DNA from: Bacilli bacterium
GTDB taxonomy: Bacteria > Bacillota_I > Bacilli_A > RF39 > UBA660
Direction: 5' to 3'
DNA: 59,292 nucleotides
NCBI GenBank assembly: GCA_036649735.1
Contig: JAVWBB010000001.1
Span: 1 to 59,292 of the forward strand
The position numbers and the translations under genes were made by a program. Positions 7,730 through 11,458 of this stretch are shown here, piece after piece. How positions within the stretch are numbered: position 1 is the first letter of the stretch; the number at the start of each line of letters is the position of its first letter. The notes under the pieces are model-generated. The model was not told the DNA's origin. It saw only the letters and a list, made by a program, of their open reading frames with translations, and did no database searches.

Positions 7730-8824
7730 CTATTCTAAAATTAAATATGACTCCTTTAAATTATCGGAAATTATATTAAATTTATATTTAAATGCTTTAA
7801 ATATTATCTTTTCTCTATTTCTTGATTTTTCTTTAGCTATTTTTATTTGTTTGTGAAATAATTCTTTGATTTTCTTTTCTGTTAAGTTAGGGTCAAAATC
7901 AATGATATTTTCTAACAATTTATTTATAGTTAATGACAAAGCTTTATTTTCTGATAAATGATGTTTTTTTTCGGAAATTAATTCCGTGGCTAAATAAAAT
8001 AATAATACTCCTTGGTCGAATTGTTCTTTTAATTGGCCGCTATCTAAATAATCTTGATTGTCTTTTGTAATTTTATATTCCTCTTTTATATATGATTGAA
8101 TATAATTCCATAAACGCGATGCTTGTTGAAAATTAGGATTTTTTAAAATAACATTAGTTTTATGAATTGGTGATTGAACTGCTGATACGTGTAATTTATT
8201 TAAAGTAATCATTAATTCCGTATTTGTAAATGCATCTAATTGTGTTTTTATAGTTTTTAATCGACTATCAAAACTATTTTCTTTATCTAAATCATCTATG
8301 CTTTTATTTGTTGATTGATAATTAATTGATACTTTTATATCTTCTGTTTTTATTTTCATTGTCCCGTTATATTCCAAATCTAATTTATCATAAAATGATG
8401 ACTCTCCATTAAATTCCCTTAATCTAAGTTCAATAAAATAACGCATGTTATTTACTAAAGTAAATATAAAGCGATTTTCATATGTATCTATACTTTCATC
8501 TTTATTAATATTTAATATTTTAGAAGGGCGAACATCACCTTTTATGGGGTCATAATCTTGAATTAAACTAGTATGTTGAGTTAAATGTATAATACTTTCA
8601 ACAGTAACTTTTTTAGCTAATTCGACCTTAACTATTTCTTCTTCATTAACAATAAATCTTTTTGGATTTCTTAAAATGTTATCAATATAAGGAATTATTT
8701 CTTCGAAAATATTTAACCATTCATCATTTAATTTTTTATCTTCATAATTTCTTTTTACTGATAATAATGATTGTAATGAATTTAATATAACTTTTGATTC
8801 TTCTAATTTATTACGATCATCCAT
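7730..8824 (-). CDS. McrC-N/DUF2357-like partner of the McrB-type ATPase, with no recognisable PD-(D/E)xK nuclease core (364 aa)
   Basis: Positioned 10 nt downstream of the McrB-like gene. ILRNPKRFIVNEEEIV and IDTYENRFIFTLVNNM resemble motifs I recall from McrC-N/DUF2357 proteins. I could not find a D...(D/E)xK motif in the C-terminal half. No TM. Confidence 0.45.
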   Translation of the reverse strand: MDDRNKLEESKVILNSLQSLLSVKRNYEDKKLNDEWLNIFEEIIPYIDNILRNPKRFIVNEEEIVKVELAKKVTVESIIHLTQHTSLIQDYDPIKGDVRPSKILNINKDESIDTYENRFIFTLVNNMRYFIELRLREFNGESSFYDKLDLEYNGTMKIKTEDIKVSINYQSTNKSIDDLDKENSFDSRLKTIKTQLDAFTNTELMITLNKLHVSAVQSPIHKTNVILKNPNFQQASRLWNYIQSYIKEEYKITKDNQDYLDSGQLKEQFDQGVLLFYLATELISEKKHHLSENKALSLTINKLLENIIDFDPNLTEKKIKELFHKQIKIAKEKSRNREKIIFKAFKYKFNIISDNLKESYLILE

Positions 8825-8834
8825 TTTACACCTC

Positions 8835-10355
8835 CTATATCATCTTTTTAAGCCTTAATAAATAATCTCGACACTCATTAAAATTTTCTTTGCCAAACTG
8901 TTTATCAAGAAAATTAATAAAGCCATCTATTTCATCACGAATATAAGCTAAATTTAATTGCTCAAACTTTCTTAATATTTTACGAGCAATAAAATAGTCT
9001 ACTCCATCTACTTCTTTTCCACCACATTCTACATAAGTTCCAATAAAGTCTCCTAGTTGTTTAACAATACGATTACCAAAGGCAATACGGAAATGTTTAA
9101 TAACGTAATCGTCCATCAAGTTTATTTTTTCTTTCATTTGACTAGTTAAAGGATACTTTGTTTTAGCTAAACTAAATAATTTTTCTAAATAACTGCTATT
9201 TATATTAATAGCTTCTGTTAATACTGGTTCAAAGACTGTTCCTTTATCATTAATATCAATTGGCATCGCACGGTCATATACTTTATCGGTAATAGCAAAC
9301 GTCGAGTCATCGTTATTTACTGTTCCTATATACCACATATTACCAGGTATTTTTAATTTACCACTCGAAAGCATTTTCGGGTCAGTATCCCAAACACTAG
9401 GCACCAATTCAATAATCCATTCTTCACGGCTTGGCATTTCCAAAATAGATAGCATCTCTGCGAAGTAATATTCTACACGAGCAATGTTCATTTCATCTAA
9501 AACTGTTACATATACATCATCATTATATCCCGCCTCATATAAGGCTTTTAATACTTCTGTTTCATTAAATTTCTTTGTAAATTCATTAAAATATCCAAAC
9601 AACTCTGTTCGATCACGCCAAGATGGTTGTACAGAGGCAATAATTGCATCTTTTGAAATGAATTTTCCCCAAGCATAAGCTAATGAAGTTTTACCTGTTC
9701 CAGATATACCTTGTAAAATAACTAGTTTTGTTGCTGATAAAGAAGAAATAAATAATCTAATCATCTCCACTGTATAATACAAATGAAGTTTGCTTGCAGC
9801 AAAATTACGAAATAAATTAACCAATTCTTCTAAAGAAAAACTATTTTTATAATCTAACACTTCATAATTTTTATAAACTTTATCAATTGCATGCAATTTA
9901 GAAAATCTAACATTTTCATCATCAATGTCTTTTTCTTTATCTTCTTCGATTAATTCACTTTCATCACCTGGTTTTAATCCCAATTGTGAAACTTTCATAG
10001 CTAATATTTTTTCTTTCTCAATTACTAATTGTGATACTTGTTTATTTAAATTACCAATCTCATTTAATAACTCTTCTTGTTCAACAACAGTTTTATGAAA
10101 ACGAATATATTTTCTAATAATAAAATAAGCAATAGCAATGATTAATCCCAGCATAATAATCATGACAATAATAGCAATAGGAACAAGTAACCATTCCGAT
10201 AAACTAAATTCTTCTTTATAATATTTAACAATTTCAAAATACTTAGGAAAGGAAAACATTTGCATAAAACCATCAACCAAACCATTAAAAAGAATTTTTA
10301 TTCCTCTAAAAAACACTGACATAAACTCATACAAAAATCTTATATATGTACTCAT
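8835..10355 (-). CDS. Membrane-anchored McrB-family AAA+ NTPase (GTPase-type), 506 aa
   Basis: Walker A LQGISGTGKTSLAYAWGKF. McrB-type SVQPSWRDRTELFGYFN. Walker B/sensor VTVLDEMNIARVEYYFAEMLSILE. NMWYIGTVNNDDSTFAITDKVYDRAMPI. N-terminal TM LLVPIAIIVMIIMLGLIIAIAYFII, then a coiled coil. The track start (TTG 10379) is replaced by ATG 10355 behind GGAGGAAG, which forms an ATGA overlap with the upstream stop. Confidence 0.8.
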   Translation of the reverse strand: MSTYIRFLYEFMSVFFRGIKILFNGLVDGFMQMFSFPKYFEIVKYYKEEFSLSEWLLVPIAIIVMIIMLGLIIAIAYFIIRKYIRFHKTVVEQEELLNEIGNLNKQVSQLVIEKEKILAMKVSQLGLKPGDESELIEEDKEKDIDDENVRFSKLHAIDKVYKNYEVLDYKNSFSLEELVNLFRNFAASKLHLYYTVEMIRLFISSLSATKLVILQGISGTGKTSLAYAWGKFISKDAIIASVQPSWRDRTELFGYFNEFTKKFNETEVLKALYEAGYNDDVYVTVLDEMNIARVEYYFAEMLSILEMPSREEWIIELVPSVWDTDPKMLSSGKLKIPGNMWYIGTVNNDDSTFAITDKVYDRAMPIDINDKGTVFEPVLTEAININSSYLEKLFSLAKTKYPLTSQMKEKINLMDDYVIKHFRIAFGNRIVKQLGDFIGTYVECGGKEVDGVDYFIARKILRKFEQLNLAYIRDEIDGFINFLDKQFGKENFNECRDYLLRLKKMI

Positions 10356-11458
10356 AATACTTCCTCCACTACATCGCAAATAAACTCATTTATAATTATT
10401 GTTTTTAAACTTGTTTCTTTATATTTTTTAATTATATCATAGTCTTTTTCTTTAATTTTATCTAAAATAATATAGTTAAATAATGAATCTTCTAATGAAG
10501 AAAGTTTCTTTTCTACATCATTAATATGGGATATATCAATAATAAGTGCGAATAAATACTTATCTTTAAAACCCTCTAAAAGACTTTTATGGCTAATATA
10601 ATCATTATTATTTATTAATAAGACAATATGCTTTTTAAAATAATTATTATTAATAAAGTTTAAAAAACTTTTAAATATATCTTTTTGCTTTAAAAAGTAT
10701 TCAGGAAGATTAACCAAATATGTCTCTAATTCACTTTGTTTCAATATTTTCTTTAAAATATCCACATTTAAATAAGTTAATATTGTTTTGACTTTTAAAG
10801 GCATTAATTCTATAGAATTATAAACATTATCAATTGATTTAGTTCGATAATTACGCGATAATTTTGGTATCTTATATTTCATATCAACTAACATTATCTT
10901 TTCAAAATGACGATATGGCTTATAATATAATGAAAAATTATCGTCATCAAAACTATTAAAAAACTTCTTTTCTTTTGTTTTAGAGGATTTAACTAATGCC
11001 ACTAATTGACTTACTACTTGACTATTATTAGTTATGCTAACCTCTTTATATAAATTTATAATCTCCATAATTTCTGTTTCATATTCTGTATCATTTAGAC
11101 ACAAAGAAAAGTCATTAATATCAATTAAAATTCCTATTAAAGCAACATAAAGTCCATATCTAATTAAATAAGTAGTTGTATAATATAATTCATTTTCCTT
11201 ATCTATTTCACTTAATAATTCTAATGAATATCCTTCTAATTCTTTTAAAATAACATTAAAATCATATTTACTGACATTTTTTTCATCTAAAGTACCTAAA
11301 ATTTTATAATAATAACAATTAATATAAGTATCTATATATTTATTTAAAATTTCTTCTTTAATTACCTCATCAAGAGAAATAGGAAATATAACATTACAAT
11401 AAGCTAAAACATTACGTTTTTTAAAATTCATAAAATAATCAATAAGATTTTTATCCAT
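10352..11458 (-). CDS. Hypothetical 368-aa protein, first gene of the three-gene AAA+ module
   Basis: RBS GAGGAGG. Its stop overlaps the McrB-like start by 4 nt (ATGA). I can assign no family. Confidence 0.55.
   Translation of the reverse strand: MDKNLIDYFMNFKKRNVLAYCNVIFPISLDEVIKEEILNKYIDTYINCYYYKILGTLDEKNVSKYDFNVILKELEGYSLELLSEIDKENELYYTTTYLIRYGLYVALIGILIDINDFSLCLNDTEYETEIMEIINLYKEVSITNNSQVVSQLVALVKSSKTKEKKFFNSFDDDNFSLYYKPYRHFEKIMLVDMKYKIPKLSRNYRTKSIDNVYNSIELMPLKVKTILTYLNVDILKKILKQSELETYLVNLPEYFLKQKDIFKSFLNFINNNYFKKHIVLLINNNDYISHKSLLEGFKDKYLFALIIDISHINDVEKKLSSLEDSLFNYIILDKIKEKDYDIIKKYKETSLKTIIINEFICDVVEEVL

Follow-up and report, generated by a model that had tools for sequence, protein, structure and literature searches.

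The DNA analysed here, a stretch of 59,292 nucleotides from a Bacilli bacterium (hereinafter, the window), carries on the minus strand three close-packed genes, which we denote U, B and C, and, 9 nt past the stop codon of C, a gene for a SipW-type signal peptidase. Protein B is an AAA+ nucleoside triphosphatase (NTPase) of the McrB type with an N-terminal transmembrane (TM) helix, protein C is a homologue of the N-terminal part of McrC in which no nuclease was found, and U is a third component of the module. The module very probably belongs to the class of McrBC relatives known as CoCoPALM, and it probably serves fibre biogenesis rather than defence. The evidence leans, although less firmly, towards the recruitment of a nuclease-less, McrBC-derived NTPase module to a locus for SipW-processed, TasA-like fibres, where it would power or gate fibre processing and assembly; the specific motor or gate mechanism outlined below is possible rather than likely.

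A preliminary description of this DNA had supposed that such a module was undescribed, but the architecture has already been named by Bell et al. (eLife 2024, PMC11090510), whose CoCoPALM class combines an McrB GTPase of the NxD type with an FtsB-like TM/coiled-coil domain, is associated with genes of the signal peptidase family and includes an McrC homologue that usually has a coiled-coil region. The treatment there consists of two sentences and a supplementary figure, with the analysis deferred to a later paper (PMC11090510), and our literature search found no later study of CoCoPALM. The window module shares the NxD GTPase, the TM and helical N-terminus, the DUF2357 partner and the signal peptidase neighbour, with no conflict between the two; the main text of PMC11090510 does not include U, the SipW-U fusions, the division of the SipW-like proteins into active and degenerate forms or the TasA-like substrates.

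The McrB-type NTPase and its DUF2357 partner

All the McrB-family motifs that had been quoted for protein B are present where they were claimed to be, namely, GISGTGKT at residues 216-223, SVQPSWRDRTELFGYFN at 241-257, VLDEMNIARVEYYFAEMLSILE at 285-306, MWYIGTVNNDDS at 340-351 and DKVYDRA at 357-363 (Table 1; conservation of B was assessed in alignment A2 and that of C in alignment A1, which contains 48 homologues). Across 150 representatives of the 8158 detectable relatives, the signature motif reads GT[AIV]NxD[DE]ST, which matches the definition of Bell et al. (NxD, then usually D or E) and so places B in the NxD branch. McrB chains are the only PDB sequence matches of B, over residues 189-364, whether the search is made with the sequence itself (E 1.5e-4) or with the family profile (E 4.6e-4). 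McrB is also the best NCBIfam match (E 4e-5), at a score so far below the equivalog cut-off that B cannot be regarded as orthologous to E. coli McrB. In the profile searches that had been proposed as a check, DUF2357 scored above its cut-off in C, and in B neither AAA_5 (18.1 bits against a Pfam cut-off of 22 bits) nor NCBIfam McrB reached theirs. In the mechanical gene call, the open reading frame (ORF) of B begins at a TTG codon at 10379, and the ATG start gives a protein of 506 amino acids (aa). More than 8000 homologous clusters were found for B and more than 2500 for C, so both genes are real.

Relatives of B were sought in one genome per GTDB species, where at least 594 stretches encode them; the close-locus set (n = 84) consists of the best 80 of these at least 594 matching stretches, three further loci (L001-L003) and the window. 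In these loci, ORFs were called, local hidden Markov models (HMMs) were built, and the presence of a TM helix and of SipW within 3 kb was scored. The preliminary description held that B begins with a TM helix and a coiled coil in place of a DNA-reading domain. The TM helix (residues 56-80) is indeed present, in B as in 84 of the 84 close homologues, and no DNA-binding family was matched by Pfam in the N-terminal 200 residues, a segment that contains the TM helix and an amphipathic linker. The coiled coil is indicated only by the helical periodicity of residues 86-134, which is consistent with a coiled coil without proving one, and by a weak Pfam FtsL_2 match over residues 45-130 (E 0.098); a heptad score, which called no coiled coil, was judged too strict, and a measure of hydrophobic periodicity was used instead. 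Just C-terminal of the TM helix lies a basic cluster, RKYIRFHK, which, by the positive-inside rule, would place the NTPase domain in the cytoplasm.

Among the proteins of the cluster, B evolves the most slowly, with 59-76% identity compared to 41-51% for SipW and 38-52% for C and, in the same genomes, 23-50% for the putative fibre proteins and 23-34% for U.

The claim that the 364-aa partner is DUF2357-like and has no PD-(D/E)xK core stood up to scrutiny. Pfam DUF2357 matches residues 28-144 of C at 49 bits (E 6.3e-13; cut-off 23.3 bits), and the N-terminal half of the protein is almost invariant in the 48 homologues. Pfam found no nuclease family in C or in its best 120 homologues, which are 356-386 aa long and have DUF2357 as their sole relevant Pfam domain. 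A D...(D/E)xK pattern is not conserved in the family, and the loose D146...D160-I-K162 arrangement of C is not kept in A1. The model of C obtained with AlphaFold2 (AF2) has a mean predicted local distance difference test score (pLDDT) of 75, with low values for residues 59-105 in the monomer, and ends in long helices (292-310 and 316-363) with amphipathic periodicity. The inspection of this model for a nuclease fold, which had been proposed as a check, yielded no PDB match by Foldseek at E <= 0.001, not even to McrC, and a PDB search with the family profile was empty; a nuclease fold for C was rejected. Longer forms of C (680-850 aa, with 300-450 extra residues) occur in Clostridia; four of these were scanned, one showing coiled-coil-type Pfam matches below cut-off and three no match at all, and no added nuclease family was found in the long variants tested.

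Protein U, the SipW peptidase and the putative fibre proteins

The 368-aa protein encoded upstream of B had been treated as a mere neighbour, a view that did not survive the comparison of loci. U matches no family in Pfam, NCBIfam or PADLOC and has few detectable homologues in a large database, and it is 27% identical (E 4e-22) to the product of the gene in the same position in L001. A clean U-family HMM places the protein immediately before B in 46 loci; in 11 loci, U forms the C-terminal domain of a fusion protein with SipW. Judged from these sequence comparisons, U is a conserved, fast-evolving third component of the module. In the fusions, the SipW part scores 62.9 and 60.5 bits against TIGR02228 and the U domain gives E-values from 1e-35 to 1e-51; U is preceded by a long, charged linker and, before that, by the second TM helix of an intact SipW, a position that would put the fused U in the cytoplasm, on the same side as the NTPase domain of B. 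Proteins of 650-756 aa that appeared to be a 'long U' arisen by tandem duplication proved to be an artefact of an iterated HMM contaminated with fusions; the clean HMM and NCBIfam identify them as SipW-U.

The structure of U was modelled with AF2 from an alignment of 4 sequences (pLDDT 77, predicted TM-score 0.66), giving a bundle of helices with a beta/alpha domain after it. In a Foldseek search with this model, the top 21 PDB neighbours were all EAL domains, including those of Bd1971, FimX, MorA and MucR, with BifA and DosP lower in the list; E-values ranged from 3e-4 to about 0.1 (at most 0.011 for the first nine) and the target-normalised TM-score did not exceed 0.49. The likeness was not significant in a Pfam scan of 55 family members or in a PDB profile search, hhalign against six E. 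coli EAL domains gave a P of 0.23, and the EAL signature residues (EAL, N, ExxE, DDFG, KxD, EGVE) are absent from the family alignment. A degenerate EAL-like fold is, tentatively, suggested by the model as a lead and not as a result.

The position of the module 9 nt from a sipW gene, as initially described, was confirmed. The encoded peptidase belongs to the archaeal/ER-type signal peptidase I family TIGR02228 (75.2 bits; cut-off 51.85 bits), and its motifs ASMDP and ITHRI align with the columns of the catalytic Ser and His, respectively. Both residues are generally kept in the peptidases at the same position in other loci (Ser in 59 and His in 60 of 61) and, more broadly, in those that adjoin B or C or are fused to U (Ser in 91/93, His in 92/93). 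By contrast, of the 77 SipW-like copies elsewhere in the clusters, among the fibre genes of the window and L004-L083, the Ser is kept in only 29 and the His in 27, so that these scattered paralogues look, from their sequences, like pseudo-peptidases. A third SipW-type peptidase of the window (655-1854, minus strand), with Ser and His intact, has a C-terminal extension of about 240 aa past its second hydrophobic segment, which does not match the U family.

Three genes upstream of U had been called TasA-like. Their products do have N-terminal hydrophobic segments of the signal-anchor type, whereas the likeness to TasA is weak: TasA (5of1) is the only PDB match of the fibre-family profile, at E 0.23, and none of the three products matches a curated family in Pfam or NCBIfam. 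The product of 3739-4746 has a match below cut-off to TIGR04088 (SipW-dependent signal peptide) at residues 21-43 (E 0.026).

Conservation of the gene context and layout of the cluster

The co-occurrence of the NTPase with sipW, which had been proposed as a check, is pervasive. A SipW gene no more than 3 kb from B is present in 83 of the 84 close loci, in both Bacilli and Clostridia, and in 58 of 76 distant TM-bearing relatives, which came from a metagenome scan whose seeds share about 30-35% identity with B; some of the 18 distant cases without a nearby SipW are at contig ends. In the close loci, B is 52-76% identical to B of the window, and the hosts are metagenome-assembled genomes (MAGs) labelled Bacilli, Mycoplasmatota, Tenericutes and Erysipelotrichaceae, together with Clostridia (Acutalibacteraceae, Ruminococcus, Oscillospiraceae). 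Loci of the window type consist of a gene for a giant protein, a SipW-like gene, three putative fibre (T) genes, U, B, C, SipW, a gene for a 260-aa protein and more T genes, and the fusion variant has the same layout except that U is joined to a SipW. The Clostridial layout (type 2) runs T, T, SipW, B and long C, with no U. A distant layout in metagenome loci L089-L116 (e.g. L103:4860-16984) comprises two small proteins whose signal peptides are of the GFASW type, a SipW of 335-379 aa, a B of 600-620 aa and a divergent C of 415-475 aa, followed by an ABC transporter ATPase, a permease, an 810-aa protein and a lipoprotein. A 1173-aa protein with a VWA domain is additionally encoded in L001-L003 and recalls BsaC of C. 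perfringens.

Within the module, the median intergenic gaps across loci are 5 nt (U-B), 16 nt (B-C) and 8 nt (C-SipW). The overlap of the 368-aa gene with the start of the ATPase gene was found as described: the stop codon of U and the start codon of B share an ATGA in ...TTATGAGT..., with GGAGGAAG upstream as a ribosome-binding site of the GGAGG type. A promoter-like site in the gap before U hints at an internal promoter for U-B-C-sipW. A second sigma-70-like site with an extended -10 element (13738-13766, minus strand) lies in the gap before the first fibre gene, and these best two sites, the former at 11486-11514, occupy the only sizeable intergenic gaps. In a scan for promoters and terminators, the counts in the region were not above those in shuffled controls, and the site before U is therefore counted as weak evidence.

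Table 1. Features of the module, its proteins and the surrounding gene cluster (positions in the window)
Feature	Position	Strand	Remarks
U, 368 aa	10352-11458	-	helical bundle N-terminal, beta/alpha domain C-terminal (model)
B, 506-aa McrB-type AAA+ NTPase, NxD branch	8835-10355	-	N-terminal TM helix and amphipathic linker
B, TM helix, residues 56-80	10116-10190	-	Kyte-Doolittle maximum 3.22; only strong hydrophobic segment
B, amphipathic helical/coiled-coil linker, residues 86-134	9954-10100	-	hydrophobic periodicity peak at 3.5-3.6 residues
B, Walker A GISGTGKT	9687-9710	-	G216, G219, G221 and K222 invariant in A2
B, Walker B VLDEMN	9486-9503	-	D287 and N290 invariant, E288 >=90% conserved in A2
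B, signature GTVNNDDST (NxD, then D)	9300-9326	-	
C, 364-aa DUF2357 McrC N-terminal homologue without nuclease, helical C-terminus	7730-8824	-	
C, DUF2357 core with near-invariant ILRNPKRF...DTYENRF	8393-8743	-	presumed ring-inserting stalk
SipW-type signal peptidase, catalytically intact by sequence	7130-7720	-	TIGR02228, Ser and His kept
260-aa membrane-anchored protein, YAWF signal-like segment	6379-7161	-	overlaps sipW 3' end; conserved after SipW
Three putative SipW substrates	13099-13713, 12476-13084, 11527-12462	-	hydrophobic N-termini; syntenic in window-type loci
More putative SipW substrates	5705-6364, 4761-5462, 3739-4746	+, -, -	syntenic in other loci
Degenerate SipW paralogue, Ser->N, His->G	13859-14458	-	
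Giant 2533-aa protein heading the cluster	14496-22097	-	no Pfam match; homologues head 23 related loci
Promoter-like site, extended -10	11486-11514	-	in 68-nt gap before U

A 539-aa protein without a TM helix and without a Pfam or NCBIfam match is encoded at 1915-3534 (minus strand); with homologues of 500-555 aa in another 19 CoCoPALM loci, this protein probably represents one more conserved component of the cluster. The cluster is flanked by housekeeping genes, namely, argS, a class A penicillin-binding protein (PBP) gene and rlmH, and lies about 30 kb from putative dnaA, dnaN and gyrBA. The ORFs at 49972-58863 (plus strand) fit dnaA, dnaN, gyrB and gyrA in size and order, and there is a strand switch near 50 kb; this order of ORFs, together with a sign change of the GC skew, suggests that the window lies at the chromosomal replication origin. 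The presence of the class A PBP (24961-26994) implies peptidoglycan synthesis by the organism, in spite of the label Tenericutes or Mycoplasmatota that close relatives bear.

Possible function and significance of the module

McrBC is the textbook GTP-driven restriction motor. The window module resembles the McrBC complexes of E. coli and Thermococcus in the AAA+ core of B, with its Walker A, Walker B and signature Asn/Asp motifs, and in the DUF2357 partner. The differences are that B has a TM anchor in place of the DNA-binding N-terminus and NxD in place of NxxD, that the partner has no PD-(D/E)xK nuclease and that the locus is outside a restriction or defence context. According to two reports on McrBC, the stalk of the partner binds asymmetrically in the hexamer ring and stimulates hydrolysis (PMC6624300, PMC7680126).

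By analogy, B, whose TM helix is observed and whose Walker A, Walker B and NxD motifs are intact, would form an McrB-like hexameric ring at the cytoplasmic face of the membrane, tethered by six TM helices and the amphipathic linkers. The near-invariant DUF2357 stalk of C, a protein for which the DUF2357 match and the lack of a nuclease match are the observed part, would insert into the ring and stimulate nucleotide hydrolysis as McrC does. U, which is fused to an intact SipW in 11 loci, would connect the ring with SipW at the cytoplasmic end of the peptidase, with the separate U and SipW proteins presumably in contact as well. Conceivably, nucleotide-driven movement then powers or gates the cleavage of membrane-anchored TasA-like precursors by SipW and their hand-over to the growing fibre, a step that would be analogous to the peptidase/ATPase/platform logic of type IV pilus assembly. 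Type IV pilus and archaellum systems, considered here by analogy only, likewise pair, in their gene clusters, a hexameric NTPase of the cytoplasm with a peptidase that is dedicated to membrane-anchored subunits; the NTPase is, however, PilB or FlaI rather than of the McrB type, the prepilin peptidase is an aspartic protease rather than an S26 SipW, and no PilC-like platform was identified.

The relevant precedents among fibre loci are the tapA-sipW-tasA operon of B. subtilis and the sipW-bsaA-bsaB-bsaC operon of C. perfringens, which also combine a SipW-type peptidase with several secreted proteins that have SipW signals but encode no NTPase, and the TasA similarity of the window fibre proteins is marginal. 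Export of the products of the C. perfringens operon depends on proteins of the type IV pilus, among them the ATPase PilB2 (PMC11580942), which shows that an energy-coupled machine can be required by TasA-like matrix systems.

Several observations weigh against a role of the module in fibre processing and assembly as outlined here. TasA of B. subtilis and BsaA of C. perfringens are made without such a module, which, therefore, is not generally needed for TasA-type fibres. About 10 distant TM-bearing relatives with enough flanking sequence lack a nearby SipW; among these, two loci (L121:6744-10465 and L155:6766-10454) are U-B-C trios with no adjacent SipW, and their B is 53% identical to that of the window. 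These two trios lie in a setting of pgk, gpmI, spo0A, lepA, hemN or a PBP gene and are followed by a gene for a 416-540-aa protein with a single TM helix; the related locus L161 has, downstream, a gene for a protein whose signal is of the SipW type. Furthermore, we infer the hexamer, the insertion of the stalk and the contact between U and SipW from McrBC structures and from the gene fusion. The scores of B for Pfam AAA_5 and NCBIfam McrB fall under the curated cut-offs, Foldseek with the model of C failed to recover McrC in the PDB, so that the relationship of C to McrC is drawn from the Pfam DUF2357 match, and the TasA-like nature of the neighbouring proteins is suggested by weak sequence signals.

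The principal competing explanation, which we consider rather unlikely, is that B, C and U form a sensor of nucleotide state (GTP bound to B and perhaps a cyclic dinucleotide bound to the EAL-like U) that licenses or blocks SipW and so times fibre production without performing mechanical work. FimX and LapD, both degenerate EAL receptors, control pilus or adhesin output; LapD does so through the protease LapG, which cleaves the adhesin LapA. Given this parallel, the resemblance of the U model to the EAL domain of FimX, taken together with the physical fusion of U to SipW, would be suggestive of such a function, and the regulation of the McrB GTPase by its partner (PMC6624300, PMC7680126) would fit as well. 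The resemblance, however, comes from a 4-sequence model that is not backed by significant sequence or profile similarity (see the TM-score and hhalign values above), the U family lacks the canonical catalytic residues of EAL domains as well as most of the residues that contact the ligand, and the Clostridial loci dispense with U altogether.

Considerably less probable, in our view, is an atypical membrane-associated system directed against phages or plasmids, derived from type IV restriction and travelling with the fibre genes, for example, to guard a structure that serves as a phage receptor. The family does descend from McrBC, a defensive role is predicted for its sister clade, CoCoNuT, and the best named match of B is the PADLOC defence candidate PDC-M26A (E 5.9e-40). 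This match is, however, limited to the shared NTPase domain (residues 158-313 of B) and probably reflects the core that is common with CoCoNuT; C and U match no PADLOC model, so the PDC-M26 candidate system is incomplete, and PDC-M26 was not found in a literature search. By the account of Bell et al. (PMC11090510), CoCoNuT systems lack a TM anchor and are always accompanied by a nearby HEPN or other nuclease. The window module resembles them in belonging to the NxD GTPase clade, in its putative coiled-coil extensions and in the McrC homologue, which in CoCoNuT often lacks an active nuclease, but it has a TM anchor and a SipW neighbour, and no nuclease, HEPN domain or other effector was found in or beside it. 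The high conservation of B, the most conserved protein of the locus, the synteny that is stable across classes, the housekeeping genes in the flanks and the fusion that physically ties the module to the peptidase also speak against defence. It is the SipW linkage, the 11 SipW-U fusions, the conservation of B and the housekeeping flanks that favour a role in fibre export and assembly, the first of the two readings offered in the preliminary description, over the defence reading. A cell division or envelope factor, with the NTPase directed to the divisome by an FtsB/FtsL-like N-terminus and associated with fibres only by coincidence, appears the least plausible of all: the weak FtsL_2 match, the characterisation of the N-terminal domain as FtsB-like by Bell et al. 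(PMC11090510) and the PBP gene upstream in L155 are outweighed by the predicted cytoplasmic location of the B linker under the positive-inside rule, on the side opposite to the FtsB coiled coil, and by the lack of consistently adjacent division genes, whereas SipW is such a neighbour.

The class to which the module belongs is already named; what is added here is the U component, the SipW-U fusion, the adjacency of the active peptidase and the pattern of conservation, which together make the hypothesis of a function in fibre biogenesis concrete and testable. At its most specific, this hypothesis would have U-B-C and SipW constitute a new NTP-driven assembly machine for TasA-like donor-strand-exchange filaments, with an McrB ring and an McrC-like shaft as the motor and the EAL-like U as an adaptor or second-messenger gate, a proposal that is speculative and, in this full form, unlikely to be correct. 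If it were true, the McrBC fold would for the first time have a demonstrated function that involves neither defence nor nucleic acids, and the machine would add a third route to surface filaments in gut Bacilli and Clostridia, beside sortase and type IV pili. The broader picture is that of a large and strongly conserved branch of McrBC without DNA binding or nuclease that is wired to a signal peptidase; the loss of the former two activities and the link to the latter point to the exaptation of a defence motor for cell-surface biogenesis, in abundant and largely uncultured lineages, namely, gut and rumen Bacilli (MAGs labelled Mycoplasmatota or Tenericutes) and Clostridia (Acutalibacteraceae, Ruminococcus).

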